Under the pieces are notes generated by a model. The model was not told the DNA's origin and made no database searches. It worked only from the letters and a program-made list of their open reading frames with translations. Position numbers and translations under genes: made by a program. A DNA stretch of 64,000 nucleotides from an uncultured Planctomycetia bacterium (lineage in GTDB: Bacteria; Omnitrophota; Gorgyraeia; Tantalellales; Tantalellaceae), in assembly GCA_964527765.1 (NCBI GenBank), contig CAZGQR010000005.1:2402-66401 (forward strand), read 5' to 3'. Numbering within the stretch: the first letter of the stretch is position 1; every line of letters starts with the position of its first letter. This document shows, in pieces, positions 7,301-44,508 of the stretch.

Positions 7301-7470
7301 ATGTTTATGACAAAGGGCCTGTCAGCGGCCCGGCGGAGATGTTCGCTCCGGAGGAGGGCGGTAAGCCGGAAGAGACATACCGCCGCAGCGCGCCGAAAGT
7401 CGGACGCAACGACCCCTGTCCGTGCGGCAGCGGGAAGAAATACAAGAAGTGTTGTGGCAGGGACGCGTAG
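4318..7470 (+). CDS. secA: preprotein translocase ATPase SecA (long form, 1050 aa)
   Basis: N-terminus [28 protein letters not shown]-like motor motifs ([24 protein letters not shown]), C-terminal zinc-binding tail [14 protein letters not shown]. Confidence 0.95.
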
Positions 7471-7471
7471 C

Positions 7472-8998
7472 ATGAAAGATATCGCACGGAACACATCTCT
7501 CGCCGCTCTGTCAGGGATCCTGGCCTTTCTGGCTTTCCCTCCGTTCGAACTTACCTTCCTGGGATGGATATGTCTTGTCCCGCTCCTGCTCGTCATTAAA
7601 AAAAACAGCTCCGGGCGGAATTTCTGGTACGCGTACCTGTCCGGCGTGGTGTTTTTCGGGTGCCTTTTGTACTGGCTCGTGAACGTGAGCGTGCCCGGCA
7701 TGGTGATACTCGTGGTTATCCTTTCTGTTTTTTACGGGGTTTTCGGGCTTTTGGCAGGATATGTCCTGAAGTATTCCATGGACCTTTTACTATTTCCTTT
7801 CATATGGGTGGTACTGGAGTACATCCGCAGCAATCTATTCACGGGTTTTCCCTGGGGCCTTCTCGGCTACACGCAGTACAGGAACATCAATCTCATCCAG
7901 ATCGCGGATATCACCGGCGCATACGGGATCTCCTTTCTGCTGGTCGTCTTTAACGCGGCAGCATTCGCCTGGATCAGCCGTTCCGGCAGGAAGATCGCCT
8001 ATATGATGGTGGCGCTGCTCTTCATTATAGCGGCGACCTCTTACGGCATGTACCGATTCAACAATTATTATATCTGGGGCAGCCCGCGCATGAGCGTCGT
8101 TCAGGGGAATATCCCCCAGCAGTATAAATGGGACGAGAAGTTCGCTAAAGATATCATAAAAGAATACAGCAGACTGACAAGGGAAGCGGCGGAGGACGAT
8201 CCGGACATGATAATATGGCCCGAAACCGCCTATCCGTACCTTGTCGAGGGAAAGGACAGGCCGGCCGGCCAGATCAGCGCCCTTGCTTCCGAACAGGGGA
8301 TCCCCATACTGACCGGGATCGTATACGCCGAAGGCGGCACTTATTACAACAGCGCCGCGGTCTTTGACGGGAAGGAGGAACTGGCCGATGTTTACAACAA
8401 GGTCCATCTTGTTCCTTTCGGGGAGTACGTTCCGTTCGAAAGGTCCCTGTCTTTTCTGAGGGACTACATAGATAAGCCCATAGGCGATTTTGCGGAAGGC
8501 AAAGAGTATACGCTTTTTCCGGTAAAGTCGGTAAGGTCGTTGACCGCGGCAGACGGATCGATACAGCGCCGGATAAATTTTTACAAGTTCGGCGTTCTGA
8601 TATGCTTCGAGGACATATTCCCGTACATCACGAGAGAATTTGTGCGGAAGGGGGCCAATTTCGTGGTCAACATCACCAACGACGCGTGGTTCGGCGATAC
8701 GGCCGCTCCCAGACAGCATCTGCAGTCATCGGTTTTCAGGGCGGTGGAGAACAGGGTCCCGGTGATACGCGCCGCCAATACCGGTATTTCGTGTTTCGTG
8801 GATTCCACGGGCAAGGTCCTCTCGAGCGTGGAAGCGGAGGGAAAAGAGGTCCTGGTCAGCGGTTTTGCCACGAGCAACGTGGACATATACGCCGGCCGCA
8901 GCGTTTACACGGTGTACGGCGACATCTTCGTGTATTTCTGCGGTTTCATGATGGCCCTTCTTTTTATCATGGAAGGGTTCTTCCTGAAGAAAGAATAA
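7472..8998 (+). CDS. lnt: apolipoprotein N-acyltransferase
   Basis: N-terminal multi-TM region followed by a CN-hydrolase domain (ICFEDIFP, NITNDAWFG). Start ATG at 7472, immediately after the secA stop; the track ORF 7301 start would overlap secA. Confidence 0.8.
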   Translation: MKDIARNTSLAALSGILAFLAFPPFELTFLGWICLVPLLLVIKKNSSGRNFWYAYLSGVVFFGCLLYWLVNVSVPGMVILVVILSVFYGVFGLLAGYVLKYSMDLLLFPFIWVVLEYIRSNLFTGFPWGLLGYTQYRNINLIQIADITGAYGISFLLVVFNAAAFAWISRSGRKIAYMMVALLFIIAATSYGMYRFNNYYIWGSPRMSVVQGNIPQQYKWDEKFAKDIIKEYSRLTREAAEDDPDMIIWPETAYPYLVEGKDRPAGQISALASEQGIPILTGIVYAEGGTYYNSAAVFDGKEELADVYNKVHLVPFGEYVPFERSLSFLRDYIDKPIGDFAEGKEYTLFPVKSVRSLTAADGSIQRRINFYKFGVLICFEDIFPYITREFVRKGANFVVNITNDAWFGDTAAPRQHLQSSVFRAVENRVPVIRAANTGISCFVDSTGKVLSSVEAEGKEVLVSGFATSNVDIYAGRSVYTVYGDIFVYFCGFMMALLFIMEGFFLKKE

Positions 8999-9012: not shown

Positions 9013-10545
9013 TCATACCCACAGGTTCCTGTCCAGGCAACGGTACCCGACCGCCTCCGAGATGTGGTGCGATTCGATCATCTCCGACCCGTCCATGTCC
9101 GCGATCGTACGCGAGATCTTAAGTATCTTATCATAGGCTCTCGCGCTGATGCCAAGTTCAAGGATCGCCGTTTTTAAAAGTTCCTCCGCCTCATTTGACA
9201 GGATGCAAAAATTTTCGGTTTCCCGGGGATTCATATACGCGTTATATGCCGAGTGAGCCGACTTTTCCCTGAATCTTTTTTTCTGGATCTTTTTGCTTTT
9301 GATCACGCGTTTCTTTATAGCCAGGGAGCGTTCCCCGCTTCTTCGTTTTGAGAGCTGCTCGTAATTCAGGCGCGGGACTTCAAGATGAATATCGATCCTG
9401 TCCAATAGAGGCCCGGAGATCTTGGAAAGGTACCGCTGTATCTGGTGAGGAGTGCACTGGCATCTCTTGTGGGGATCCGTAAAGTACCCGCACGGGCACG
9501 GGTTCATGGCGGCTATAAGGATAAAGCGCGAGGGATACTTGAGCGTTCGTTCGACTCTGGCTATGGTGATCTCTCCAGATTCAAGCGGCTGGCGGAGCGT
9601 CTCGAGCACGTCCCGACGGAATTCGGGAAATTCGTCAAGAAAAAGCACTCCGTTATGGGCGAGACTTATTTCACCAGGTACCGGGCGGGATCTGCCGCCA
9701 GCCATGGCCGCGTACGATATCGTGTGATGGGGGCAGCGGACCGGCCGTTCACTTATGAGGCCGTCCGTTTTCAGCCGGCCGGCTATGCTGTAGATATTGG
9801 TCACTTCGAGCGCTTCCTCCGGTGAAAGATCCGGAAGAATAGTGGGGAATCTTTTTGCAAGCATGCTCTTGCCCGAACCGGGCGGTCCCAGCAACAGGAC
9901 GTTATGTCCGCCGCTGGCAGCGACTTCCATGCCTCGCTTAACATGCTCCTGTCCCTTAACGTCTTTAAAATCCAGGTTATCGTGTGATCCTTTTTTTTCA
10001 AGGCTTTTTTCCCGCGGGTTTACGATATCAAGGGTATCCGTTCCCTTGATATGATCGATCACTTTTCGCAGGGTGGGCGTGCCGTAAACGGAGATACCTT
10101 TTACGTTAGCCGCCTCCCGGGCGTTGCTTTCCGGCAGGATAAAAGCCCTGCCTTTTTTCTTCAGGGCTATAGCGATAGGCAGAGCCCCGCGGAAAGGTTT
10201 AAGCCTGCCGTTCAGGGAAAGCTCGCCGCACAGCAAGAGCCCTTCAAGCTCTTCCTGTTTGATCAGCCCCGTCGCGGCGAGAATACCGATCGCGATGGGA
10301 AGATCGAAACCGACGCCCTCTTTCTTTATGTCGGCCGGGGAAAGATTGACGGTTATTTTTCTCTCGGGAAAAATAAAGCCGGAATTCCTGATAGCGGAGC
10401 GGATGCGATCCCGGCTTTCTCTTATGGAGGTGTCGGGAAGGCCGACAACGCAAAAAGAAGGAAGGCCGTTTGAGACATCAACTTCAACATCGATGTGGTA
10501 GGCGTCGATCCCCATGACGCATCCGGAGTTGACTTTTGCTAACAT
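9013..10545 (-). CDS. comM: Mg-chelatase-like AAA+ ATPase ComM/YifB
   Basis: 510 aa with an N-terminal Lon-like domain (GVGFDLPIAIGILAA), Walker A GPPGSGKSM, and a C-terminal ChlI/MCM-like region. Confidence 0.85.
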   Translation of the reverse strand: MLAKVNSGCVMGIDAYHIDVEVDVSNGLPSFCVVGLPDTSIRESRDRIRSAIRNSGFIFPERKITVNLSPADIKKEGVGFDLPIAIGILAATGLIKQEELEGLLLCGELSLNGRLKPFRGALPIAIALKKKGRAFILPESNAREAANVKGISVYGTPTLRKVIDHIKGTDTLDIVNPREKSLEKKGSHDNLDFKDVKGQEHVKRGMEVAASGGHNVLLLGPPGSGKSMLAKRFPTILPDLSPEEALEVTNIYSIAGRLKTDGLISERPVRCPHHTISYAAMAGGRSRPVPGEISLAHNGVLFLDEFPEFRRDVLETLRQPLESGEITIARVERTLKYPSRFILIAAMNPCPCGYFTDPHKRCQCTPHQIQRYLSKISGPLLDRIDIHLEVPRLNYEQLSKRRSGERSLAIKKRVIKSKKIQKKRFREKSAHSAYNAYMNPRETENFCILSNEAEELLKTAILELGISARAYDKILKISRTIADMDGSEMIESHHISEAVGYRCLDRNLWV

Positions 10546-10567: not shown

Positions 10568-10939
10568 TCAATGTAATTCGATTATATTTTTCACATGATG
10601 TAGTGATCGCAATTTTCCGCGCACGTCCAGCTTGACGGCAATGGCATCAACACGGCACGGCCCGTTGCATAAATCATATCTTTTAAGGTAATATTGGCAG
10701 TTTTTCAAAATGTGTTCCTGTTTTGTTCTGGTTATCGAGGAAAGAGGCGGTCCGAACCTTTCCGATGTCCGCGTTTTGACTTCCAGGAAAATAATGCAGC
10801 CGTTTCGCTCCGCTACCAGGTCGATCTCGCCGAACGGAGCGCGAAAATTCCTGTCCAGGATCGAGAAACCTCTTGAAACGAGAAATCTTTCGGCCATTTT
10901 CTCGCCGAGTTTTCCGGTATGCTGCCGGGACCGCCTCAT
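10568..10939 (-). CDS. yraN: YraN family endonuclease (UPF0102)
   Basis: 123 aa; GEIDLVAERNGCIIFLEVKTR is the typical UPF0102 core. Confidence 0.7.
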   Translation of the reverse strand: MRRSRQHTGKLGEKMAERFLVSRGFSILDRNFRAPFGEIDLVAERNGCIIFLEVKTRTSERFGPPLSSITRTKQEHILKNCQYYLKRYDLCNGPCRVDAIAVKLDVRGKLRSLHHVKNIIELH

Positions 10940-10950
10940 CGTGATCCTCC

Positions 10951-11229
10951 TTATTTTTTTACTGTTTCCTGTTCAGCGTAGCTTTCAAGCACCAGCTCCT
11001 GCAGGCCCTTGCGCATTTCCCTGGAAACGGGATGAAAGGTATCGTACCATTTGCCGTCACGCCCCTGCTGTTGGGGCATGCCCACAAAAAGGCCGTCCTT
11101 ACCCTGCACGACCCTCAGACCCTTTACCAGGAAAGCGTCCAGTATCAGCAGGTCGCAGAACGCTTTTGTCGGGCCTTCGCCTTCCAGCGCGTGGATCCGT
11201 TCAACCTTAACAACCGGTTTACTGTTCAT
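10951..11229 (-). CDS. spoVG: SpoVG family protein
   Basis: 92 aa from the internal ATG at 11229, which has a GGAGGT RBS. The DGKWYDTFHP motif matches SpoVG. The longer track ORF to 11304 lacks an RBS. Confidence 0.75.
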   Translation of the reverse strand: MNSKPVVKVERIHALEGEGPTKAFCDLLILDAFLVKGLRVVQGKDGLFVGMPQQQGRDGKWYDTFHPVSREMRKGLQELVLESYAEQETVKK

Positions 11230-11357: not shown

Positions 11358-11804
11358 TTATTTTTTGGGATCGAACCGTGAAAGGATCTCGTCGGCTTTA
11401 TCTTTGTCACCGCGTTTCCATGCATCGTGGATCATGATAAGCATTCTTGTGGTCCTGGCGTCGATTATGCATTTTGCGCCCAGGAGCAGAGTTGCCGCCA
11501 GAAATTGCAGGAAATATTTTGGGAACAGGAAAGAGGACGCGAACGCCATTGTTGCCCCTATAAGCCACCGGTTTTTTCCGATCCAGCGAAACACCGTGCT
11601 CGCGATCTCGCCAATGTCGCGTTTATTGATAATATCGTGGGTTTCGGCTATCAGTTTTCGGCATTCCGCGCAGGCAGCAAGGTGTTTTTCTGTTTTGATC
11701 CTCTCTTCTGCCGAAAGAACCCCGCTTATGTATTCGCTTAATATTTCTTCGGATGGGCATATCCTGTTCATGATGGATCTCCTCCTTATCATTATAGACA
11801 ACAA
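11358..11804 (-). CDS. anti-sigma factor, zf-HC2 type with one TM segment
   Basis: HLAACAECRKL H-x3-C-x2-C motif, a hydrophobic helix (WLIGATMAFASSFLF), and position directly downstream of an ECF sigma. True start probably the internal Met near 11771. Confidence 0.55.
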   Translation of the reverse strand: MLSIMIRRRSIMNRICPSEEILSEYISGVLSAEERIKTEKHLAACAECRKLIAETHDIINKRDIGEIASTVFRWIGKNRWLIGATMAFASSFLFPKYFLQFLAATLLLGAKCIIDARTTRMLIMIHDAWKRGDKDKADEILSRFDPKK

Positions 11805-11851: not shown

Positions 11852-12517
11852 TTACATGTCCAGAATGTCCTTAAGGTTCCTTCGGAGCCGGTTCTTTGCC
11901 CTGCTGATCAGTGTCGCGACCGTCCCCTCGGGTATATTCATTATCTCCGCTATATCTTTCTGTTTTTTCCCGTCGTATATATTAAGTTTCAAGGCAAGCT
12001 GCTTTCTGTATCCGAGCTTTGAGATCTCTTTTTTCAGGATGTCTTTAAGTTCGTTCTCTTCCAGTGTTTTTGCGGTATTGAACTTGGGAGAGGGGATCAT
12101 GGAGCCGAGTTTTGTGTCCGGAGATCCGGGGAAAGGGCTTTCGTCCAGGGAAAGCGTGCCCCCGGCCCTGAATACGTGCCTTCTGCAGTAATTACTGGTC
12201 GCGTTAAGCGACACTATAACCAGCCAGCTTTTGAGAGAGACCGTATTTTTCACCCCCGAGAGCTTGCCTTTCTCCCATATTGAAAGGAATATTTCCTGAA
12301 CGATATCGCGGGTCTCGTTTTTCGGAAGATGTCTGCCGAGTTTGTTCAGTTTATATCTGACGCTTCTGGTCACAAGGCCGCCGTAGCGCCTGACGAATTC
12401 GTCCCAGGCGGCCGCGTCCCTGTCAATGCATCCTTGCAGTAGCTCTTTGGCGGTCATAACAGGGATATTATAGGCCATTTTTATCGGAAAATCAAGAAAA
12501 ATTTGATTTTTCATCAA
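11852..12517 (-). CDS. ECF (sigma-70 family) RNA polymerase sigma factor
   Basis: Region 2 (DIVQEIFLSIWEK) and region 4 HTH (QKDIAEIMNIPEGTVATLISRAKNRL). Start is ambiguous: TTG 12517, ATG 12514, or ATG 12457 (MTAKELL). Confidence 0.8.
   Translation of the reverse strand: MMKNQIFLDFPIKMAYNIPVMTAKELLQGCIDRDAAAWDEFVRRYGGLVTRSVRYKLNKLGRHLPKNETRDIVQEIFLSIWEKGKLSGVKNTVSLKSWLVIVSLNATSNYCRRHVFRAGGTLSLDESPFPGSPDTKLGSMIPSPKFNTAKTLEENELKDILKKEISKLGYRKQLALKLNIYDGKKQKDIAEIMNIPEGTVATLISRAKNRLRRNLKDILDM
12467..12495 (-). promoter_or_regulatory. TTGATT-17-TATAAT promoter inside the annotated N-terminal codons of the ECF sigma ORF
   Basis: On the minus strand, TTGATT (12495-12490) and TATAAT (12472-12467) are separated by 17 nt. 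The -10 lies 9 nt upstream of ATG 12457, which suggests a leaderless transcript starting at MTAKELL. Confidence 0.35.
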
Positions 12518-12620
12518 GAAGACATATCCGGTTCACATTTTCCTTGTAGGCGATTTTCTTTTTTAGTATATTAACTTAGATCGTGTGTTTATATTTCTTC
12601 GATCTAACCCGGATAAGGTA

Positions 12621-14351
12621 ATGGATAACAGGGAAATAGCCGCCATATTCTCTCATATCGCCGACGCGCTTGAAATAAAGGGCGAGAACGTGTTCAGGGT
12701 CCGCGCTTACAGGGTCGCATCCCAGAACATCACGGGGCTCTCCCGCGAGCTCGCGGATATATACAAGGAAGACCCCTCAAAGCTGGAGAAGATCCCGGGC
12801 ATCGGCAAGGACCTCAAGGAAAAGATCATCGAGATGATCACCACCTCCGGGCTCAAGTATTACGATGAACTGATGAAAGAATTCCCGCCCGGCTTCCTCG
12901 AGATGTTCGACCTTCCCGGTCTCGGGCCCAAGAAGTTGAAAAAATTAAGGGACGAGCTGGGGATAAAGAACGTGAACGACCTGGAAAAAGCCTGCAAGAA
13001 AGGAAAACTTGAGAGGATCGAAGGCATGGGAAAGAAGACCCAGGAAAAACTTCTGGAGTCGATAGAACACTTCAGGAAACGGGAAGGCCGGATGCTGCTA
13101 TCCGAAGCGGATGCCTGCGCGAACAGGATAGTCGAATACCTTTCGAAGTCCAAGAATTTCAAGAAGATAGAGAAAGCCGGCAGCCTGCGCAGGGGGAGGG
13201 AGACCATAGGAGATCTTGACATACTTACCGTGGCCGGCGACAGCAAAAAAGCCATGGACTATTTCGTGAGCTTCCCCGGTGTTGAGAGCGTGATAGCGAA
13301 AGGCCCCACCAAGTCGAGCGTATCCCTGAAAGGGGGCCCGCAGGTGGACCTCCGGGTAATAGACGCTTCGTGTTTCGGGGCGGCCCTCATGTATTTCACG
13401 GGCTCCAAGCAGCACAATGTGGAGATCCGCAAGATCGCCAAAAGCAGGAAGTACAAGGTGAGCGAATACGGCATGTTTTCCGTATCCCGCGGCAGGGAGA
13501 AGATGGTGGCCGGCAAGACCGAAGAAGAGGTGTACCGCAAACTCGGCATGCAGTGGATCCCTCCGGAACTAAGGGAGTCCCAGGGTGAGATCGAAGCCGC
13601 GATGAAAGGGACTCTTCCCGGGCGGCTTCTGGAGATAAAAGATATAAAGGGAGACCTGCATATACATACTGTTGCGTCTGACGGCAATTTTTCGGCGGAA
13701 GAAATGGCCGCCGCCGCCAAAAAGAAGGGCTATGAATACATGGCCGTGACCGATCATTCCAAGAACGTGCGGATCGCAGGCGGCATGGATGAAAAACGGC
13801 TGCTGAAGGAGATCGAAAAAACAAGAAAGATCGCCAAAAAGATCAAGGGCATAAAAGTGCTCATGGGCGTTGAGGTGGATATACTCGAGGGCGGAAAACT
13901 TGACCTCGAAGATCACGTGCTGAAAGAGCTTGATATCGTGATAGCGGCTGTTCACTCCCGTTTTTCGCTGGATAAGGAAAAACAGACCAGCCGCATCCTG
14001 AAGGGGATGGATAATAAATATGTCAATGTTCTCGCGCACCCGTCCGGCCGGCTCATAACGAGCCGCACCCCGCTCAAGGTCGATTTTGACAAGGTCTTCA
14101 AACACGCATCGGAGAACAATATCTATCTCGAGGTAAATACTCACGGGCAGCGCATGGATCTCAATGACGCACATTGCCGCAGGGCCCGGGAACTGGGCGC
14201 GAAGATCACCGTGAACACCGACGCGCACAGCATCGAACAGCTGGATGAGATGATCTACGGGGTCGTGACCGCCAGGAGGGGCTGGATCGAGAAAAAGGAC
14301 GTGCTTAATACCTACTCTTTTGATAAACTGCTTAAAGCGTTAAAGCGGTAG
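12621..14351 (+). CDS. polX: DNA polymerase X family protein with C-terminal PHP phosphoesterase domain
   Basis: Pol-beta-like HhH and palm motifs (GIGKDLKEKI, GSLRRGRETIGDLDIL) plus a PHP domain (DLHIHTVASDG, VNTDAHS). Confidence 0.85.
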   Translation: MDNREIAAIFSHIADALEIKGENVFRVRAYRVASQNITGLSRELADIYKEDPSKLEKIPGIGKDLKEKIIEMITTSGLKYYDELMKEFPPGFLEMFDLPGLGPKKLKKLRDELGIKNVNDLEKACKKGKLERIEGMGKKTQEKLLESIEHFRKREGRMLLSEADACANRIVEYLSKSKNFKKIEKAGSLRRGRETIGDLDILTVAGDSKKAMDYFVSFPGVESVIAKGPTKSSVSLKGGPQVDLRVIDASCFGAALMYFTGSKQHNVEIRKIAKSRKYKVSEYGMFSVSRGREKMVAGKTEEEVYRKLGMQWIPPELRESQGEIEAAMKGTLPGRLLEIKDIKGDLHIHTVASDGNFSAEEMAAAAKKKGYEYMAVTDHSKNVRIAGGMDEKRLLKEIEKTRKIAKKIKGIKVLMGVEVDILEGGKLDLEDHVLKELDIVIAAVHSRFSLDKEKQTSRILKGMDNKYVNVLAHPSGRLITSRTPLKVDFDKVFKHASENNIYLEVNTHGQRMDLNDAHCRRARELGAKITVNTDAHSIEQLDEMIYGVVTARRGWIEKKDVLNTYSFDKLLKALKR

Positions 14352-16645: not shown

Positions 16646-18079
16646 ATGGCGGAAGAAAAAAATGAGCTTATTGAGCAACGGTACAAGAACCTGGAAGAGC
16701 TTGAGAAAGAAGGGATAAGCCCTTTTGGCGAAAGTTTTTCCGATGTTCAGAGCATAGAGTCCGTAAAGAATGATTACTCCGAAGGGCGCAAGGTCAGGAT
16801 CGCGGGCAGGATAATGGCCAGAAGAGAACACGGCAAGAGCGCTTTTCTGGACATCAAGGATTCCACGGGCAAGCTGCAGGCATACCTGAGGAAGGACGTC
16901 ATAGGGGATGAGGCTTTCGGCAGACTGAACAACCTGGATATAGGGGATATCATGGGAGTTGACGGCGAGCTTTTCAGGACAAGAACGGGAGAAGATACCG
17001 TAAAGGTGACCGAATATCGCCTCCTGTCCAAGTCTCTTCTGCCCCTTCCCGAAAAGTGGCACGGCCTGAAGGACGTAGAGACCAGGTACCGCCAGAGATA
17101 CGTCGACCTGATAGTCAACGATTCGGCGCGTGAAAAATTCAAGGCCCGTATCGGGCTTATCCGGAATATAAGGGAGGAGCTTGACAGGAGAGGTTTTCTT
17201 GAGGTCGAAACGCCGATGATGCATCCGGTGCCCGGCGGCGCCGCGGGAAAACCTTTCAAGACGCACCACGAAGCGCTGGATATAGACCTGTATCTGAGGA
17301 TCGCCCCGGAAATATACCTTAAGAAACTTCTTGTAGGGGGATTTGAAAAGGTGTTCGAGATAAACCGCTCTTTCCGGAACGAGGGTATCTCCACGAGGCA
17401 CAACCCCGAATTCACCATGCTGGAGGTGTACGAGGCGTATTCCGACTCGAGTGGCATGATGAAACTTACCGAAGAGCTTATCCGTTCCGCGGCAAAGGCC
17501 ATACTCGGCACGGAAACGTTCAGTTACCAGGACAGGAAGGTGGACCTGACGGCCTGGAAAAAGATCTCGTTCGCGGAGCTTATGGAAGATAATTTCGGCA
17601 TCAGGATCGACGATCCGCTGGCCGAATGGGTAAGCAAGCTCAAGGCAAAGGGGATCGAGATAGAGGGCGATACCGTCAGCAAGACGCAGATCATCAATAT
17701 CGTGGGCGAACTTGTCGAACCGAAGACCGAAACGCACCCGGTTTTTGTCGTGGACATGTTCAAGGAACTGAGCCCGCTGGCAAAAGAAAAAAAGGGCGCC
17801 CCCGGGCTGGTCGACAGGTTCGAGCTGTATATCGGAGGGCTTGAGGTGGCTAACGCTTATTCGGAGCTCAACGACCCTATCGATCAGCGCAGGAGGTTCG
17901 AGGAACAGGTCAAGACGGACCCGGATGCGATGGTCGATGATGATTTTATCAGGGCGCTTGAATACGGGATGCCGCCCGCCGGAGGCCTGGGGATAGGGAT
18001 AGACCGGCTTGCCATGATCTTTACGGATTCGGCGAGTATCCGGGAAGTGATCTTCTTTCCCCATATGAGGCCGGAGTAA
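16646..18079 (+). CDS. lysS: lysine--tRNA ligase (class II)
   Basis: Start at MAEEKN with an AAAAGGA RBS. Anticodon-binding OB fold and class II motifs (FRNEGIS, GGLGIGIDRL). The track N-terminal extension to 16547 has no RBS. Confidence 0.9.
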   Translation: MAEEKNELIEQRYKNLEELEKEGISPFGESFSDVQSIESVKNDYSEGRKVRIAGRIMARREHGKSAFLDIKDSTGKLQAYLRKDVIGDEAFGRLNNLDIGDIMGVDGELFRTRTGEDTVKVTEYRLLSKSLLPLPEKWHGLKDVETRYRQRYVDLIVNDSAREKFKARIGLIRNIREELDRRGFLEVETPMMHPVPGGAAGKPFKTHHEALDIDLYLRIAPEIYLKKLLVGGFEKVFEINRSFRNEGISTRHNPEFTMLEVYEAYSDSSGMMKLTEELIRSAAKAILGTETFSYQDRKVDLTAWKKISFAELMEDNFGIRIDDPLAEWVSKLKAKGIEIEGDTVSKTQIINIVGELVEPKTETHPVFVVDMFKELSPLAKEKKGAPGLVDRFELYIGGLEVANAYSELNDPIDQRRRFEEQVKTDPDAMVDDDFIRALEYGMPPAGGLGIGIDRLAMIFTDSASIREVIFFPHMRPE

Positions 18080-18087
18080 ATAGTAGC

Positions 18088-19299
18088 ATGTGGACTTTAT
18101 TTATAAGCATCAAATACTTTTTGACCAGGAGAAAAGAAGGGATGATATCCCTGATAGGGGGCATTTCCGTCCTGGGAGTGGCGCTGGGCGTAGCGTCTCT
18201 TATTATTGTCCTGTCGGTGATGAACGGTTTTGATGCGGAGATCCGGAATAAGATCATCGGGACCTACGCCCACGTGATCGTATCAAGGGAGGGGGGTATA
18301 GTTGATCCCACGGCCATGGTATCGCGTGTCGAGTCCATGCCGGGGGTAAAAAGCGCTTCGCCTTTTGTGACCGGGCAGGCGGCGCTGAGGAAGGGTAATG
18401 CCGTCACGGGCGTCCTCCTGAAGGGGGTAGACGCGGAAAAAGAGTCCGAAGTGAGCGAAGTGATAAAATATGCGGGCTCTGCCGGAACCCGGCTGGGAAA
18501 TAATACCATTGTTCTCGGCAGCGAACTGATGAAGAGCGAGGGCATTTCCGTGGGCGATACCGTGGAGATGATCATGCCGTATTCAGTGGTGGATATGGAA
18601 AAGGCCAGGCTAAAGGTCATAGGAAGTTTTAACTCCGGGCGGTACGATTATGACGCGAATATAGCCGTTATCGGGCTGGGGACCGCGCAGCGGCTTTTCC
18701 GCATGGGAAGCGCGGTGACCGGTATCGGCATACGGGTAAAGGACGAGATGGGAGTGAACGGCTTGAAGACGCGCCTGCAGTCCTCTCTGGGATACCCCTA
18801 TATCGTAAAGAGCTGGATGGATCTCGACCGTAACCTTGTGACCGCGCTTGCGCTGGAGAAAAAGATGATGTTCATCATACTGGCGCTTATAGTCATGGTC
18901 GCCTGTTTCAATATTGCCGGTTCTCTTATAATGATGGTCATGGAGAAGACGAGGGATATCGGTATCCTTAAGGCGATCGGGGCGAATTCCCGCGGGGTAA
19001 GACTTGTTTTCCTGCTGGAGGGGGCCATTGTAGGGCTGCTGGGCATCGCGGTAGGAGGCTTCTCGGGTGTTTTCATAGCGGAGAGGGTCAACGTCGTGGC
19101 TGATTTCGTCGAACAGGTGACCGGGATAACTATCTTTCCCAGCGACGTGTATTATTTCACGGAGATACCGGTCCGGGTGAGTGCGCTGGATGTCAGCATG
19201 ATCATTTCAGTGGCCATGCTCCTGGCGCTGGCTGCCGGGATATATCCGGCATGGAAAGCGTCCCGGCTTGATCCGGTGGAAGCGATAAGGTACGAATAG
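18088..19299 (+). CDS. lolE: lipoprotein-releasing system permease, LolC/LolE (FtsX) family
   Basis: 403 aa: N-terminal TM, a periplasmic domain, then a C-terminal FtsX 3-TM bundle. Followed by an ABC ATPase. Confidence 0.7.
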   Translation: MWTLFISIKYFLTRRKEGMISLIGGISVLGVALGVASLIIVLSVMNGFDAEIRNKIIGTYAHVIVSREGGIVDPTAMVSRVESMPGVKSASPFVTGQAALRKGNAVTGVLLKGVDAEKESEVSEVIKYAGSAGTRLGNNTIVLGSELMKSEGISVGDTVEMIMPYSVVDMEKARLKVIGSFNSGRYDYDANIAVIGLGTAQRLFRMGSAVTGIGIRVKDEMGVNGLKTRLQSSLGYPYIVKSWMDLDRNLVTALALEKKMMFIILALIVMVACFNIAGSLIMMVMEKTRDIGILKAIGANSRGVRLVFLLEGAIVGLLGIAVGGFSGVFIAERVNVVADFVEQVTGITIFPSDVYYFTEIPVRVSALDVSMIISVAMLLALAAGIYPAWKASRLDPVEAIRYE

Positions 19300-30575: not shown

Positions 30576-31301
30576 ATGGTAAATTTACTGTGCGTGATCA
30601 TAGTTCTTCTATTCCTGGCGGTTGTTTATTACCTGCACATGCGGATCTTTTTTGCCGATGAGATAAAAGCGGCCATGGAAAGAGACCCCGCGGCGACAAG
30701 TCACGCTGAGGTCATCTTTACGTATTCCGGACTGCACGCCCTGGTGTTTTATAAGGTGACGCACGCGCTCAGAAAATGGCGCGTTCCGTTCCTGCCGCGG
30801 TTTTTATCCCAGCTGGGCAAATGGATGACCGGGATCGAGATACACCCCGGCGCCACCATAGGTAAGGGACTTTTCATAGATCACGGGATGGGGGTCGTTA
30901 TAGGCGAGACGAGCGTTATCGGCGATAACGTGACGCTGTTCCAGGGCGTGACCCTCGGCGGGACAGGAAAAGAAAAGGGCAAGCGGCATCCGACGCTCGG
31001 GGATAACGTGGTGGCAGGCGCCGGAGCGAAGATACTCGGCAATATCACCGTGGGGAACAACACGCTGATAGGGGCTAATGCGGTGGTTATCCGCGATATC
31101 CCGGACGATTCGACCGTGGTCGGGGTTCCGGGGCGCGTGGCGAAAAAACGCGGGAAACGCCTTCCGGGAGGCGTCAATCTCGATCATACCTCACTGCCGG
31201 ATCCGATCCAGCAGGCCCTGGAAAGATTGCAGCATGAAATAGACCATATCGAAACCGAGATCGGGGAATATCGCGAGAGAAAAGAAGGCGGAACAGGGTG
31301 A
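30576..31301 (+). CDS. cysE: serine O-acetyltransferase
   Basis: Left-handed beta-helix hexapeptide repeats ([30 protein letters not shown]) and an ERDPAA N-terminal motif. A strong AAGGAGA RBS sits at 30576, but the first 21 aa are hydrophobic; an alternative start is 30639. Confidence 0.75.
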
Positions 31302-37036: not shown

Positions 37037-37354
37037 ATGACAAACAAAGAGATTTGCCGCGGTAAAATAAAAAACGCTTCCGGTCTTACAAGATTCCAGA
37101 AAAAGGTGCTGCTCGCGGTGCTGGAGATCCCCCGGGGCGAGGTGCGTTCTTATGCCTGGGTGGCCGATAAGACCGGTTCCCCCGGGGCCTCGCGGGCCGT
37201 AGGGCAGGCTCTGGCGGCTAATCCTTATGCGCCCGAAGTGCCCTGTCACAGGGTCATCTCTTCCGACGGATCGATCGGAGGATACTCAAAAGGACCGGCC
37301 AGGAAGCGGCGATTGCTCCAAAAAGAAGGAGTTGTGATAAGAAAGTGCGACTGA
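37037..37354 (+). CDS. ogt: methylated-DNA--protein-cysteine methyltransferase, DNA-binding domain only (short Ogt/MGMT)
   Basis: 106 aa with the PCHRV active-site motif and a winged-helix region. The start is chosen downstream of the palindrome. Confidence 0.65.
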   Translation: MTNKEICRGKIKNASGLTRFQKKVLLAVLEIPRGEVRSYAWVADKTGSPGASRAVGQALAANPYAPEVPCHRVISSDGSIGGYSKGPARKRRLLQKEGVVIRKCD

Positions 37355-38721
37355 TAGATACCCATTGCCATCTGGACTTTCCGGATTATAAGGATGACCT
37401 GGGCGATGTCCTGAAAAGGGCCGAGGGTGCCGGAGTGGTGCGGATGATCTCCCCCGGTACGGATGTCGCCAGCAGCGAAAAAGCCGCCGGGATAGCCGCA
37501 AAATACAGTGCCGTGTACGCCGCGGTCGGCGCGCATCCGCACGGTGCGGACAAGGCCGGTGAGCCGGACCTCGCGCGCCTTCGGGGCATGGCCGTCTCGA
37601 ATGATAAGATCGTGGCCATAGGCGAGGTGGGACTGGATTATTATAAGAAATATTCGAAGGTCGAGAACCAGAGATCGCTTTTCCGAAGCTGCCTGGGGAT
37701 CGCAAAAGAGCTTGACCTGCCGGTGATACTGCATAACCGCGACGCCGGGGAGGACCTGCTGCGTATTCTCGAGGAAACAGCGCCCGTTCCGGCAAAAGGC
37801 GCCGTTCATTGCTTTTCGGCGGATGCTGCGGTTCTCCGCGAGGTTTTGACGCTCGGGCTGCATGTTTCGTTCGCGGGCAACATAACGTTCGAGAAGGCCG
37901 CGGGCCTTCGTGACGTGGTGAAGCGGGTGCCGCCGGACCGGCTGCTTCTGGAGACGGACTCGCCGTATATCACGCCGGTGCCGTTCAGGGGTCAAAGGAA
38001 CGAGCCGGCATATGTCCGTTATCTTCTGGATATCTATGCGGCCGCGTACGGACTGTCCCCGGAGGACATAGCAAGGATCACCACGCATAACGCGAACAGG
38101 CTTTTTTGCCTGGGGATAGAAGAAAAGGGCGCGGTAGCGTATCCTATAAGGGATTCGCTGTATCTCAATATCACCAACAGGTGCACGAACAGGTGCACGT
38201 TCTGCACCCGTCAATATTCCAATTACGTAAAAGGACACAACCTTAAACTGGATGCTGAACCCACTGCGCGGGAGATAATAGATGCCATGGGGGATATATC
38301 CGCCTATAAGGAAGTGGTGTTTTGCGGTTACGGTGAACCGACGCTGCGCCTGGGGGCCGTTAAAAAGGTCGCCGCTTACGTGAAACAAAAGGGCGGTAAA
38401 GTAAGGTTGACGACCAACGGGGAAGGTGATCTTATCAACGGACGGTCCATAGCCGCCGAACTGAAGGGTCTCGTTGACAGGGTCTCGATCAGCCTGAACG
38501 CGCCGGACGCGAAGACCTATGACCGTCTCTGCCGGCCGGTTTTCGGAGGGGATGCGTATGGCGCGGTACTGGACTTTGCCCGCGAGTGCGGGGATAAAGG
38601 CATGGAAATGGAAATAACGTGCCTGGATATCGTCGGGGAGGAGGGTGTCCGGGGGTGCCGCCGGATAGCGGAAAAAGCGGGCGCAAAATTCCGGTTAAGG
38701 CACATGGATGTGGTCGGATAA
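37345..38721 (+). CDS. TatD-family metal-dependent hydrolase fused to a C-terminal radical SAM domain
   Basis: N-terminal ~255 aa: TatD motifs (IDTHCHLDF, GEVGLDYY, LETDSPY). C-terminal ~200 aa: CTNRCTFC (C-x3-C-x2-C) radical SAM core plus GYGEPTL glycine-rich SAM-binding motif. Confidence 0.75.
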   Translation: MRLIDTHCHLDFPDYKDDLGDVLKRAEGAGVVRMISPGTDVASSEKAAGIAAKYSAVYAAVGAHPHGADKAGEPDLARLRGMAVSNDKIVAIGEVGLDYYKKYSKVENQRSLFRSCLGIAKELDLPVILHNRDAGEDLLRILEETAPVPAKGAVHCFSADAAVLREVLTLGLHVSFAGNITFEKAAGLRDVVKRVPPDRLLLETDSPYITPVPFRGQRNEPAYVRYLLDIYAAAYGLSPEDIARITTHNANRLFCLGIEEKGAVAYPIRDSLYLNITNRCTNRCTFCTRQYSNYVKGHNLKLDAEPTAREIIDAMGDISAYKEVVFCGYGEPTLRLGAVKKVAAYVKQKGGKVRLTTNGEGDLINGRSIAAELKGLVDRVSISLNAPDAKTYDRLCRPVFGGDAYGAVLDFARECGDKGMEMEITCLDIVGEEGVRGCRRIAEKAGAKFRLRHMDVVG

Positions 38722-39840: not shown

Positions 39841-40890
39841 ATGGCTTACGAGACGATACGGTGGAGAAATGACAGAGTAGAGCTTATCGACCAGAGGCTT
39901 CTTCCGGGGAAAGTGCGTTACGTGCCGTGCACGACGGACAGGGACATACACGCGGCGATAAAGACGATGAAGATAAGAGGCGCCCCGGCGATAGGGATAG
40001 CCGCCGCTTACGGGGCGTATCTGGGCGTGCGCAGGAGCCGGGCAAAGGATTTCGTGGGATTCAAAAAAGAACTGGACAGGGCAATGAAATACCTGGCCGG
40101 GTCACGGCCGACGGCAAGGAACCTTTTTTGGGCGCTGGAAGAAGTAGATGCCCTCGTAAAAAATAACAGGAACAGGCCTGTCGGGGAACTGAAACGCATG
40201 ATCCTCGGCAAGGCCCGCGCGATACTTGAGGAAGACAAGAAAATATGCCGTTCGATAGGAAATCGCGGAGGGAGGCTGATCAAAAAGGGTTCCGGCGTCC
40301 TGACGCATTGCAACGCGGGGGGCCTGGCGACCGGCGGGTACGGCACGGCTCTTGGGGTGATCTTCTCCGCCGGAAGGAAGATCAGAATGGTATACGTCGA
40401 TGAAACGCGCCCCGTTCTGCAGGGAGCGCGCCTGACGGTGTGGGAACTCATGCAAAGGAAGGTCCCCGCGACGCTTATATGCGATAACATGGCAGCTTCG
40501 CTTATGGCTAAAAGAGAGATCGATGCGGTCATAGTGGGCGCCGACCGGATCGCGGCTAACGGGGACACCGCCAACAAGATCGGGACGTATAACGTCGCTA
40601 TCCTGGCCGATCACCATAATATCCCGTTTTATGTCGCGGCGCCGGTCTCGACGTTCGATCTTTCGATCCCGCGGGGCGAGAGCATTCCGATAGAAGAGCG
40701 CTCGCATGAAGAGGTAAAAAAGATCGGCGGCAGGTATATAACCCCGAGGAACGTGAAAGTGAAGAATCCCGCTTTTGACGTCACGCCCGCCGGGCTGATC
40801 ACGGCGATCATCACGGAGCGCGGGATTATAAGGAAACCGAATAAGCAGAAGATCGCGAGAAAAGTGAAGGGTGGGGCAGGTCTGCTGTAG
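39841..40890 (+). CDS. mtnA: S-methyl-5-thioribose-1-phosphate isomerase (eIF-2B alpha/beta/delta-like family)
   Basis: MKIRGAPAIGIAAAYG, TGADRIAANGDTANKIGTY. The last 7 codons are contributed by hairpin repeat copy A. Confidence 0.75.
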   Translation: MAYETIRWRNDRVELIDQRLLPGKVRYVPCTTDRDIHAAIKTMKIRGAPAIGIAAAYGAYLGVRRSRAKDFVGFKKELDRAMKYLAGSRPTARNLFWALEEVDALVKNNRNRPVGELKRMILGKARAILEEDKKICRSIGNRGGRLIKKGSGVLTHCNAGGLATGGYGTALGVIFSAGRKIRMVYVDETRPVLQGARLTVWELMQRKVPATLICDNMAASLMAKREIDAVIVGADRIAANGDTANKIGTYNVAILADHHNIPFYVAAPVSTFDLSIPRGESIPIEERSHEEVKKIGGRYITPRNVKVKNPAFDVTPAGLITAIITERGIIRKPNKQKIARKVKGGAGLL

Positions 40891-40930
40891 TAGCACAGGG
40901 TCGGGAATAGACCAGCCCCATTTATTTTTA
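40871..40930 (+). repeat. hairpin repeat family copy A (stem GGGGCAGGTCT/AGACCAGCCCC, T-rich tail)
   Basis: Stem 40873-40883 pairs with 40909-40919 (one mismatch). Conserved loop ...GTAGTAGCA...GGTCGGGAATA. T-tract runs into the thiL ATG. Confidence 0.6.
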
Positions 40931-41841
40931 TGAAAGAACTTGAACTGGTTGAATATATTCGCAAACGTGCCGGCAGGCCCGGCAAGGGCGTGAAGATCGG
41001 GATAGGCGACGATTGCGCCGTGCTCGAGTACGATGCGAAACATTATCTTCTCTGGGCTACCGACATGCTCGTGGAAGGGACACATTTTCGCCTTAAAGGA
41101 ACGCCGTACAGGAAGATCGGCCGCAAGGCCGTCGCGGTCAATATAAGCGATATCGCCGCCATGGGAGGATTGCCCAGGCATGTCACAGTGGCCATGGGCA
41201 TTCCGGGCGGGATGGCCGGTTCCGCCGTCCGCGGCATCTATGACGGCATATTCGGCATATGTAAAGATCACGGCATCAAGGTCATCGGGGGTGATATTAA
41301 CCGGTCCGGCAGGCTCATAGTCGATGTTTCCATCATGGGGCTCGTCGAAAAAGAACGGCTGATAAAGCGCAGCGGCGCCAGGGAAAAAGACCTTGTGCTG
41401 ATCACGGGTCCCGTCAGGAGCGGAAAAAAAGAACACCTGGATTTCGCGCCGCGGCTGAAGGAAGCGCGGTTCCTTTCCCGGCGCTGTAAAATAAATTCCA
41501 TGATAGATACCTCGGACGGGATCGCCCTGGATATGGGGCGGATATGCTCTGAAAGCGGCGTGGGATGCAGATTGTATGAAGGAGCTATCCCGCTTTCAAA
41601 GGGGCTCACGCTCGAAGAAGCTCTTTATTCCGGGGAAAGTTTTGAACTATTGTTCACCATGGGGGTGAAGGAGGCAAGGAAACTGTTTTTGAAGAGAAGA
41701 TCGTTCCTGCCTCAGGCAGGGGGTCGGGAATGTGAATATTTTGTTATCGGGGAGATCACGCCGAAGAAGAACGGCCTTTGCCTTATAAGGAAAGAGGGAC
41801 GTGCGGGCGCGTTGAAGATGACGGGGTTCAGACACCTGTGA
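40930..41841 (+). CDS. thiL: thiamine-monophosphate kinase
   Basis: AIR-synthase-related fold, DDCAVL, GGDIN motifs; 303 aa. Confidence 0.8.
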   Translation: MKELELVEYIRKRAGRPGKGVKIGIGDDCAVLEYDAKHYLLWATDMLVEGTHFRLKGTPYRKIGRKAVAVNISDIAAMGGLPRHVTVAMGIPGGMAGSAVRGIYDGIFGICKDHGIKVIGGDINRSGRLIVDVSIMGLVEKERLIKRSGAREKDLVLITGPVRSGKKEHLDFAPRLKEARFLSRRCKINSMIDTSDGIALDMGRICSESGVGCRLYEGAIPLSKGLTLEEALYSGESFELLFTMGVKEARKLFLKRRSFLPQAGGRECEYFVIGEITPKKNGLCLIRKEGRAGALKMTGFRHL

Positions 41842-41842
41842 A

Positions 41843-41948
41843 AGGCGGGACAGGTCTGCGGCGGTAGACGTTGCTGAAAGGCGGGACAGGTTTACTGTGG
41901 TAGCATAGTCCCGGGAATAAACCTGTCCCTGTATTTTTATTTTTAAGC
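41843..41948 (+). repeat. hairpin repeat family copy B (truncated 5' half plus complete copy)
   Basis: The 5' half AAAGGCGGGACAGGTCT (41843-41857) is followed by a complete copy: stem GGGACAGGTTT (41883-41893) pairs with AAACCTGTCCC (41919-41929), with a C-to-T/G-to-A covarying pair. T-tract runs into the tsaE ATG. Confidence 0.6.
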
Positions 41949-42425
41949 ATGAAAAGCATAACAACTAATTCTCCGGAAGGAACGATGGAAATTGCGTCTC
42001 ACCTGGCGAAGAACCTCCGTGAGGGCGATTTTATAGCTCTTCTGGGGGAACTGGGGACCGGCAAGACCATGTTCGTAAAAGGACTGGCCGAGGGGCTGGG
42101 GATCGAGGGCCATCTTTATGTTAATAGCCCTTCATTCGTCGTGATGAGAGAATACCGCGGGAAGAAGGACCTTTATCATTTTGACGTTTTCAGGCTTGAT
42201 CTGAAAAGTTTTTGCGAGACCCTGGATTATGAGAAATATTTTTACGGCAGCGGCATTACCGTCGTTGAATGGGCGGATAAGATAAAGGATATCCTGCCCG
42301 AGGATTACCTGGAGATCGGGATAGAATTCAGCGATCATACGGAGAGAAAGTTCACCTTTCGCGCGGTCGGCGCGAGGGCAAAAGAGATCCTGAGGGGAAT
42401 GAAAGGCGGGACAGGTCTACAGTAG
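41949..42425 (+). CDS. tsaE: tRNA threonylcarbamoyladenosine biosynthesis protein TsaE
   Basis: P-loop GELGTGKT, 158 aa. The C-terminal KGGTGLQ is encoded by hairpin repeat copy C. Confidence 0.8.
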   Translation: MKSITTNSPEGTMEIASHLAKNLREGDFIALLGELGTGKTMFVKGLAEGLGIEGHLYVNSPSFVVMREYRGKKDLYHFDVFRLDLKSFCETLDYEKYFYGSGITVVEWADKIKDILPEDYLEIGIEFSDHTERKFTFRAVGARAKEILRGMKGGTGLQ

Positions 42426-42476
42426 TAATGTAAGGTCGGGAATAGACCTGTCCCTATATTTTAATTTTTGTAGTAC
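42402..42476 (+). repeat. hairpin repeat family copy C
   Basis: Stem GGGACAGGTCT (42408-42418) pairs perfectly with AGACCTGTCCC (42444-42454). Same loop motif. T-rich tail 42455-42476 runs into the tsaB ATG. Confidence 0.6.
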
Positions 42477-43160
42477 ATGAAGATACTTGCGCTCGATACA
42501 TCGACGAAATTTCTGAGCATCGCGTGCCTTGAAGACGACAGCGTAAAAGCCGCGTTCCATGAGGACGTCGGTATACGGCACAGCGAAGTTCTTATCGACG
42601 CCTTGAGGGAAACGTCAGGTTCTCTCGGCTGGTCCATGGGAGAAATAGGCCTGATATGCACAGGCCTTGGGCCGGGATCCTTCACGGGGGTGCGCATAGG
42701 GGTCGCCACGGTCAAGGGCCTGGCTGCGGTCCTTCGCAATAAAGTGGTAGGCGTTCCCAGCATGGATGCCATTGTCATGGAGGCGCCGCCGGGACGGGAA
42801 CTGGCAGCTCCTTTTCTTGATGCGCGTAAAGGGAAGGTATACGCGTGCGTTTATGACCGTTCAGGCGGGGAAGCCAGAAGGATCACCGATTATCTTCTGA
42901 CGACGGTTGATGAATTTTTAGACGGCCTGAAAGAGAAGGTGTTCCTGTTCGGAGATGCGGTCACGAAGTATAAGGAAAAACTGGACAACTGTTCACTGGC
43001 GGAGTATGCTGAAAATATAGACTGGTATCCGAGAGCCGCTCATATAGGGCGCATCGGGTTCAGGAAAGCTCTGACGGCAACGGATGATCCTGAAGCCCTT
43101 GAGCCGTTGTATCTGCACGCGAAAGAATGCCAGATCCAAAAAAGAGGCAAAGCGGTATGA
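42477..43160 (+). CDS. tsaB: tRNA t6A biosynthesis protein TsaB (YeaZ)
   Basis: N-terminal MKILALDTST, ASKH fold, no metal-binding HxxH. Partner of tsaE. Confidence 0.8.
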   Translation: MKILALDTSTKFLSIACLEDDSVKAAFHEDVGIRHSEVLIDALRETSGSLGWSMGEIGLICTGLGPGSFTGVRIGVATVKGLAAVLRNKVVGVPSMDAIVMEAPPGRELAAPFLDARKGKVYACVYDRSGGEARRITDYLLTTVDEFLDGLKEKVFLFGDAVTKYKEKLDNCSLAEYAENIDWYPRAAHIGRIGFRKALTATDDPEALEPLYLHAKECQIQKRGKAV

Positions 43161-44284: not shown

Positions 44285-44400
44285 CCTCATTCAAACCCGC
44301 AAAACTGAAAGTAAAACGGACAAAAATGTGTCTATAGTATCAGGTCCCGGGGATCAAGTATGCGGGATTTTCAGAGAGATCAGGACATAAAACCGGAATC

Positions 44401-44428
44401 TTGACAAAGGTTTTTGTTGTGTTATACT
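44401..44428 (+). promoter_or_regulatory. candidate sigma70 promoter TTGACA-16-TATACT for the ilvBHC-leuA operon
   Basis: TTGACA at 44401-44406 and TATACT at 44423-44428, in an AT-rich 224-bp intergenic region ~80 nt upstream of ilvB. Confidence 0.35.
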
Positions 44429-44508
44429 TATTAAACGCATTTGGTATAACTGTTTGTGTATATGTTATAGGAAATGAATATTATTTTATGGCATAAAGGG
44501 GAAGTAAA

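Follow-up and report, generated by a model that had tools for sequence, protein, structure and literature searches.

The window analysed here is a 64,000-nt stretch of contig CAZGQR010000005.1 from a member of the Omnitrophota, a group of uncultured, small-genome bacteria whose non-coding DNA is, to our knowledge, essentially undescribed. Homologues of ThiL assign the window to this group. It contains a string of co-directional genes in which MtnA, ThiL, TsaE, TsaB and Alr were identified by NCBIfam, the first three in agreement with a preliminary description of this DNA. The gene junctions between positions 40865 and 42476 are occupied by three full copies (A, B and C) of a short hairpin-forming repeat and by one 5' half-unit. 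The three complete and one truncated copies within 1.6 kb that had been reported earlier are confirmed by a repeat finder, which places them in one family at 40865-40934, 41875-41944 and 42400-42469, plus a 29-nt 5' fragment at 41839-41867. A covariance model, R1, trained on five copies, gives those of the window 85-92 bits (E 2e-25 to 2.5e-23). The repeat is a real family that has not been described before, and the genes it reaches into obtain stop codons and C-terminal residues from it.

The unit of about 70 nt begins with TGAA-N4-5, followed by an arm of 11-12 nt (GGGACAGGTYT) and a spacer of 23-25 nt in which GTAG and CGGGAATA occur; the arm then recurs inverted, and an A/T-rich tail ATATTTTTAT closes the unit. 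The arms do not reach the ends of the conserved unit, which continues for 8 nt on the 5' side and for 10-23 nt on the 3' side and leaves them sub-terminal; from arm to arm the hairpin measures 47 nt. An 11-bp GC-rich stem had been described for each copy. B and C form perfect 12-bp stems (GGGACAGGT[C/T]TA / TA[G/A]ACCTGTCCC) around 23-nt loops; copy A differs in a previously unmentioned A.A mismatch and a second compensatory pair. The stems of 11-12 bp include 6-7 GC pairs and are followed by 6 U in the first 8 nt of a T-rich tail that, as noted before, ends at the ATG of the next gene. Predicted folding energies of copies A to C range from -21.5 to -25.0 kcal/mol (z -2.3 to -3.4). A scan for hairpins with T-tracts returned B and C as the sole such structures in the intergenic DNA of the window and missed A because of its mismatch. 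Each unit brings along a U-tract and closes all three frames with stop codons.

The copies are intimately joined to the flanking genes. The 5' arm and loop of copy A hold the last 7 codons of mtnA together with its TAG stop (40888-40890), and the TAG stop of tsaE (42423-42425) lies inside the loop of copy C. The similar C-termini of MtnA and TsaE, to which the preliminary description had drawn attention, are indeed encoded by the repeat: translation yields KGGAGLL* from copy A and KGGTGLQ* from copy C. Downstream, the next ATG is found 10, 19 and 22 nt past the stem of the three copies, and the genes start straight after the U-rich tail without a Shine-Dalgarno motif.

Table 1. Coordinates of the repeat copies, the neighbouring genes and further repeat features; rows without a genome handle refer to positions in the window.
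Feature	Position	Strand	Sequence or remark
mtnA, S-methyl-5-thioribose-1-phosphate isomerase	39841..40890	+	NCBIfam
Copy A (C-subfamily)	40865..40929	+	begins TGAAGGGT; reads TGAAGGGTGGGGCAGGTCTGCTGTAGTAGCACAGGGTCGGGAATAGACCAGCCCCATTTATTTTTATG
Copy A hairpin	40873-40919	+	GGGGCAGGTCT / AGACCAGCCCC, one A.A mismatch
Copy A tail		+	ATTTATTTTT; directly against thiL ATG at 40930
thiL, thiamine-phosphate kinase	40930..41841	+	NCBIfam and ThiL homologues
5' half-unit, 36 nt	41839..41874	+	TGAAAGGCGGGACAGGTCTGCGGCGGTAGACGTTGC; thiL stops at its TGA
Copy B (T-subfamily)	41875..41948	+	reads TGAAAGGCGGGACAGGTTTACTGTGGTAGCATAGTCCCGGGAATAAACCTGTCCCTGTATTTTTATTTTTAAGCATG
Copy B hairpin	41883-41929	+	GGGACAGGTTTA / TAAACCTGTCCC
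Copy B tail		+	TGTATTTTTATTTTTAAGC; directly against tsaE ATG at 41949
tsaE	41949..42425	+	NCBIfam
Copy C (C-subfamily)	42400..42476	+	reads TGAAAGGCGGGACAGGTCTACAGTAGTAATGTAAGGTCGGGAATAGACCTGTCCCTATATTTTAATTTTTGTAGTACATG
Copy C hairpin	42408-42454	+	perfect 12 bp
Copy C tail		+	TATATTTTAATTTTTGTAGTAC; directly against tsaB ATG at 42477
tsaB	42477..43160	+	NCBIfam; no Shine-Dalgarno-like motif after U-rich tail
cysE 3' end, possible decayed 5'-arm remnant	31282..31301	+	AAGGCGGAACAGG (AAGGCGGAACAGGgTGA), 12/13 to element 13-mer
L010 (JAYEOV010000059), sister-family sites	2780-2860, 5350-5470, 7250-7500, 8620-8740, 9860-10025, 11640-11765, 12470-12550, 18460-18580
L009, GTAG-tagged palindrome	~5665-5700, 6040-6066, 9955-9985, 11360-11390, 13338-13368
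L008, heptamer arrays	3439-3589, 6284-6336, 7714-7812, 10898-10930, 13236-13437, 17165-17361
L010, heptamer arrays	9828-9860, 10985-11109, 12433-12470
L011, heptamer arrays	6086-6187

In the part of this genome that was searched, the family is not abundant. Searches for the window family covered 74 kb, namely the 64-kb window and 10 kb more upstream of it, taken from the 352.9-kb ENA contig ERZ27256796 k141_1391240 of the same organism, which carries the MurJ of the window; a JGI contig differs from the window at only 5 of 7397 positions. The covariance model returned no further copy in the window with filters off, and none in the additional 10 kb. The density is 3.5 copies in 74 kb, all inside 1.6 kb. 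The model also finds copies in relatives: matches with E 1e-22 to 1e-25 occur in the window, at two sites of L004, the closest relative, and in the metagenome-assembled genome L001/L014 (CAYPCX010000004.1). In the latter the sixth copy lies in the rtcB-serS spacer and was detected by scanning a genome collection with a strict sequence pattern. This pattern proved too narrow, as it misses the L004 copies. Applied to a metagenome collection, it returned the L001 copy again (L002) and one chance palindrome (L003), a full-length perfect hairpin of other architecture. Two scans of viral contigs turned up a single stem match (L012), which is at chance level and has an unrelated loop, and none for the L010 type of hairpin described below. 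Copy numbers in the relatives are two in 12.6 kb of L004 and one in 21 kb of L014. The L001/L014 genome is titled 'uncultured Planctomycetia bacterium', a title that probably misplaces the organism, as its SerRS is 79-85% identical to Candidatus Omnitrophota / Makaraimicrobium proteins; a comparison of tetranucleotides and GC content with the window genome leans toward different species.

The copies share 68-87% identity over 70 nt, and this similarity includes the loop, the 5' flank TGAAAGGC and the tail. An exact 13-mer, AAGGCGGGACAGG, is present three times, compared with an estimated chance expectation of about 0.08 per window for 13-mer matches with at most one mismatch, and model E-values lie near 1e-23. 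The notion of three independent intrinsic terminators that resemble each other merely by chance or convergence could appeal to the GC-rich stem and the T-run, both typical of terminators. It is effectively refuted by the identity outside the stem, and we consider it almost certainly wrong.

Within the six copies, two stem pairs are changed on both sides (columns 12-52 and 18-46), and the second of these reads CG in three copies and UA in the other three. The compensatory C>T/G>A pair in copy B, on which the preliminary description had built its case for selection on the structure, is therefore real (column 18-46). It is not evidence from independent events, however, because the C-G to U-A change is common to B, the L004 cysE copy and the L014 copy, which all display the GGTTT/AAACC state, and thus marks an old subfamily. 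With the L004 cysE copy, B shares 87% identity, with A and C only 76-80%, which shows that B was not copied from its neighbours; copy C is nearest to the L004 mtnA copy (85% identity). By these affinities the copies form two old subfamilies.

The comparison with relatives, in seven of which the gene order is conserved, was made junction by junction. At thiL|tsaE the two genes overlap by 4 nt (ATGA) in L004 (CACTTATGAAGAGC), L007 and L009. The junction of L004, whose ThiL is 76% identical to that of the window, reads CACTTATGAAGAGCATAAC, and the corresponding sequence in the window is CACCTG-TGAA-(107 nt)-TGAA-AAGCATAAC, that is, a 111-nt insertion that consists of the half-unit and copy B and has TGAA at both bounds. 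At tsaE|tsaB, L004 possesses a 47-nt spacer without a hairpin and its TsaE ends in ...EQL*; in the window, copy C replaces the native TsaE end. At mtnA|thiL, by contrast, L004 has an orthologous copy (9937-10005) and an MtnA tail KGGTGLLR*. A further full copy separates cysE and cysS in L004, at a point where the window genes overlap (cysS starts at an overlapping GTGA). The copy in L014 sits in the serS leader, downstream of a promoter-like TTGCAT-17-TATAAT block and after ACGGCATG (L014 9871-10000), and the block is conserved in two relatives without the element (L018 183-343, L019 9920-10000). Taken junction by junction, the element is gained and lost between co-directional genes. At the same rtcB|serS point L018 carries an unrelated long palindrome, GTCATCCCGG...CCGGGATGAC, and L019 has neither.

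The 3' end of cysE in the window, where AAGGCGGAACAGG encodes a CysE tail KEGGTG*, might be a decayed remnant of the element. Our confidence in this is low, since similar G-rich 13-mers also occur inside genes. Further near-matches to the 13-mer of the 5' arm, inside cysE and a CPBP gene, were dismissed as ordinary coding sequence. A different peculiarity is located inside thiL, where window positions 41707-41735 code for a lineage-specific insertion of 5 residues (SFLPQAGGRECE; five relatives have S-----RRQKYG). The DNA of the insertion comprises a CCTGCC/GGCAGG palindrome and, after it, GGGGTCGGGAATG, similar to the loop motif GGGTCGGGAATA of the element; it may be an in-frame fragment of the element or a chance resemblance.

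The presence of TGAA at both bounds of the insertion between thiL and tsaE means that the upstream TGA stop and the downstream ATGAA start are both preserved. New copies may arise by copy-and-paste into nearby junctions, and this insertion could have been generated via a 4-bp target duplication or via microhomology-mediated template switching. The TGAA duplication is clean at one site only and is not consistent at tsaE|tsaB, at cysE|cysS or in the L010 copies, and TGAA also simply begins ATGAAR genes. A more specific proposal is a "junction cassette" that targets the ATGA/TGAA stop/start overlaps between co-transcribed genes, inserts by TGAA duplication and brings stop codons for every frame, a terminator hairpin that ribosomes can melt and a U-rich leader lacking a Shine-Dalgarno motif, with the tandem half-units as by-products of the copying mechanism. 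If true, this would be a mobile element adapted to operons, which turns translationally coupled pairs into separately tunable genes. We regard this proposal as doubtful.

Hairpins of related design in other relatives make up a wider superfamily. They occur at mtnA|thiL of L008 (GGGGACACGTCTG...CAGACGTGTCCCC) and, as a sister family, in L010 (TGAAGTTCCGGGGACACGCCTGTTGTAGGCGCC...GCATGTCCCCGGAATATATTTTTAT), where eight copies are found in 21 kb, four per orientation, with the minus-oriented copies all upstream of the plus-oriented ones. L010 also displays tandem 5' half-units of 46 nt, up to four in a row, which end in ..TGC before the next TGAA; the 36-nt half-unit of the window matches this architecture. 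From arm to arm the L010 hairpins measure 47-48 nt, and the L008 copy, which is intermediate, measures 45 nt. When 15 copies are aligned, they display a common layout of TGAA, GGGACA arm, GTAG in the loop, TGTCCC arm and ATATTTTTAT tail. Over these copies 91.7% of the stem cells are paired and 5 of the 12 pairs are changed on both sides, and none of 500 shuffles attained the observed stem score; paired changes thus maintain the stem. The tail is kept in the minus-oriented L010 copies as well, which indicates that it belongs to the element.

Other, unrelated hairpins are also frequent in these genomes. In L009 a GTAG...CTAC palindrome (GTAGCCGGGGCTTnnGnCCCGGCTAC plus a T-run; GTAGCCGGGGCTT..GCCCCGGCTAC) occurs five times and occupies the mtnA|thiL and tsaE|tsaB junctions too, and L007, L011 and L018 carry further unrelated hairpin families at shared junctions. 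The recurrence of unrelated families at the same junctions marks these as hot spots for hairpin repeats. In addition, several other repeat families fill the unusually long intergenic gaps of L010. The intergenic gaps of relatives also contain tandem heptamer arrays (GACAGAA, CTGAAAC/GGTTTCA, GTCGCAG, GATAACC, TGATGGG), some of which are followed by the inverted complement array; none is present in the window.

On the whole of these observations, the element is probably a low-copy, lineage-specific, non-coding palindromic repeat of one Omnitrophota clade that has been copied into gene junctions and acts there as a leaky terminator or RNA-stabilising hairpin. Several points weigh against this interpretation. 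The copy number is low (3.5 in 74 kb), and high-copy dispersal in the window genome is not seen. No transposase with matching ends turned up, although no genome-wide search was made. The TGAA duplication is clean at a single site. The five independent sites of the window type are all co-oriented with transcription, which could suggest selection for a host function over selfish spread. A GGGACA-type hairpin is found at mtnA|thiL in four diverged genomes (window, L004, L008 and L010), which looks like vertical retention of a useful structure. Finally, an efficient terminator should not be tolerated in the serS leader of L014, past the promoter-like block.

Some of these points would be expected if the hairpins were intercistronic terminators or attenuators that are selected by the host to tune mtnA, thiL, tsaE and tsaB, with rare local duplication or gene conversion instead of mobility. 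The co-oriented sites also share the U-tract, the arms of the mtnA|thiL hairpins covary, and the density in the window genome is low. B and C being the only strong hairpin-plus-T-tract structures in the intergenic DNA of the window, and the unrelated families that L009 and L007 carry at the same junctions, which again combine a hairpin, a T-run and an ATG, point in the same direction. Selection by the host for termination is nevertheless difficult to reconcile with the dense sister family of L010, half of which is inverted with the T-run before the hairpin and cannot terminate sense transcription. Moreover, relatives do without B and C, B is nearer to a copy at another junction of another genome than to its neighbours, one copy occupies the serS leader past a conserved promoter-like block, and a loop of 23-25 nt is far above canonical terminator size. 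We therefore consider purely host-selected terminators rather unlikely, and retain the inserted repeat as the preferred interpretation.

The preliminary description argued that full termination would break an apparent operon and leave no room for promoters. This is reasonable, given the overlap of thiL and tsaE in three relatives and a promoter scan of the window that detected no promoter-like site downstream of any copy. A consensus terminator scan of the window did not report the copies. TsaE and TsaB are part of the complex for t6A modification of tRNA, and alanine racemase is the product of alr; these genes are essential, so termination at the copies must be incomplete. The unit would be transcribed within the polycistronic mRNA and fold into the hairpin followed by the U-tract, and the hairpin would function as a leaky intrinsic terminator and/or as a hairpin that protects 3' ends. 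Termination is expected mainly when no ribosome covers the 5' arm, because at mtnA and tsaE the stop codon is located in the loop, where a terminating ribosome would cover the 5' arm and melt the stem. Read-through would keep TsaE, TsaB and Alr expressed, with translation from a U-rich leader that lacks a Shine-Dalgarno sequence. A leaky, translation-sensitive terminator or a 3'-protecting hairpin is the role that we infer and favour. Roles in mRNA stabilisation or protein binding had been preferred earlier; the U-tract carried by the unit itself makes a leaky terminator at least as likely.

Promoters of the sigma-70 type are in use in this lineage: TTGACA-17-TATACT is present before ilvB and conserved in four genomes. 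The alr|ilvB spacer (window 44285-44508) contains two promoter-like blocks, AAAAARTGTCTATARTA and CTTGACAA-17-TGTGTTATACT, which are conserved across the window, L009, L007 and L010 and are followed by a conserved leader TAGGAAAT.AATATTA before ilvB; this leader may represent a small transcript or leader regulation.

Conservation in the loop could instead be taken to indicate a structured cis-acting RNA, for example one that governs processing or stability or acts as a translational-coupling module, in which the GTAG ... CGGGAATA loop is bound by a protein or RNase and the stem is a mere scaffold. The motifs CGGGAAT and G(T/C)AG are kept in five to six of the six copies, with variable positions adjacent to them. 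GTAG, 6 nt from the 5' arm, is exact in four of the six, C having GTAA and the L004 cysE copy GCAG, and is seen again in the L008 and L010 loops; the downstream genes lack a Shine-Dalgarno sequence and start right past the U-rich tail. On the other hand, the loop sequence is otherwise not conserved between the window family and the families of L008 and L010, the inverted L010 copies cannot present the same RNA, and Rfam has no matching family even when E is allowed to reach 10. The two internal structures that we considered were both discarded: a putative inner hairpin has only 2-3 bp and shifts its register in C, so that it is not robust, and an alternative "T-loop-like" GGTC/GACC pairing is absent from B and L014. 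A cis-acting RNA of this kind seems to us distinctly improbable.

Among described systems, Rfam gave no match at gathering score over the 64 kb and only noise at E up to 10 over 40800-42520, ARAGORN reported no tRNA or transfer-messenger RNA match, and a literature search for Omnitrophica plus repetitive extragenic palindromic (REP) sequences yielded no matching paper. Integron attC sites, CRISPR and dif-like sites were rejected, as a GTTRRRY core is absent, the spacings of 36, 525 and 1010 nt separate whole genes and the synteny is conserved. The unit resembles an intrinsic terminator in its GC-rich stem with an immediate U-tract, and departs from one in its loop of 23-25 nt instead of about 3-8 nt and in its position inside a conserved co-directional string instead of at the end of a transcription unit.

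The repeat most similar in form is SPRITE (2011, PMC3049150). Both repeats are small and interspersed and feature a long stem followed by a U-rich tract near the 3' ends of coding sequences. Both have low copy numbers (30 per genome in SPRITE), for neither is a transposase known or a target duplication established, and both are suspected to be co-opted terminators. SPRITE, however, has an AT-rich 18-bp duplex and is enriched between convergent genes (PMC3049150). The present copies, unlike SPRITE, are situated between tightly packed co-directional genes, overlap the last codons of the upstream open reading frame (ORF) and possess a conserved loop of 23-25 nt and tandem half-units; the comparison is one of form, and a relation in sequence is not to be expected.

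The REP-like or MITE-like (miniature inverted-repeat transposable element) insertion proposed in the preliminary description is correct as far as an inserted family with empty orthologous sites and copies elsewhere is concerned; the strict definition of REP does not apply and that of MITEs applies in part. REPs are palindromes of 20-40 bp with an unpaired GTAG/CGTC at one end and usually hundreds of copies (PMC3733652), and REPINs are mobilised by RAYT (Bertels and Rainey 2011, PMC3337134; Di Nocera et al. 2013, PMC3733652). The present repeats are likewise extragenic palindromes and are located mostly between unidirectional genes, downstream of coding sequences; they form lineage-specific families with subfamilies, conserve a GTAG tetramer and have the same proposed roles in termination and mRNA stabilisation. 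Unlike in REPs, the hairpin is 47 nt and the full unit about 70 nt long, GTAG lies within a large loop and does not flank the stem, the arms of 11-12 nt are not themselves palindromic, and the density is low. The palindrome of L009 fits the REP definition much better. With MITEs such as Correia and RUP (PMC3184786, PMC10969869) the repeat has in common that it is non-coding, below 200 bp and equipped with inverted arms, that it shows presence/absence polymorphism at orthologous sites with several copies, and that ORFs which it enters can receive stop codons and C-terminal residues from it. It differs in that the arms are not at the very ends, that its size of about 70 nt is at the lower limit, that the candidate target duplication is clean at just one junction, and that no parent insertion sequence is known. 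We conclude that this is an Omnitrophota repeat of a fairly ordinary REP/MITE-like type and not a new kind of system.

Mycobacterial interspersed repetitive units (MIRUs), like the present copies, are co-oriented with genes. As far as they are summarised in PMC3184786 (Supply et al. 1997), they are intercistronic units of 40-100 bp in operons, whose ends overlap the stop and start codons of the flanking ORFs and which can be tandem, as is the case here. According to the same summary, MIRUs contain small ORFs that couple translation and form variable-number tandem-repeat arrays; the present repeat has a strong hairpin and a U-tract without a MIRU-type internal ORF, only its 5' half is tandem, and there is no sequence relation.

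The conserved and tightly packed housekeeping gene strings of this clade have thus been invaded repeatedly by small hairpin repeats. These rewrite the C-termini of proteins (MtnA, TsaE and probably CysE) and separate genes that were formerly translationally coupled, which calls for caution in annotation with regard to spurious C-terminal extensions and split operons. The repeats may be of use as strain or lineage markers, and they offer a natural test case for the tolerance of terminator-like hairpins upstream of essential genes.

Two further features of the region were observed in passing. About 6 kb upstream of the window start (L021 3863-5035), an IS481-type (rve) transposase gene lies beside a nucleotidyltransferase/HEPN pair; it is the only transposase gene seen nearby and bears no obvious relation to the hairpin repeats. 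Window positions 37345-38721 form a single ORF that combines a TatD-family nuclease with a 'TatD-associated radical SAM' domain (TIGR00010 and TIGR04038), a fusion that is conserved in all relatives.

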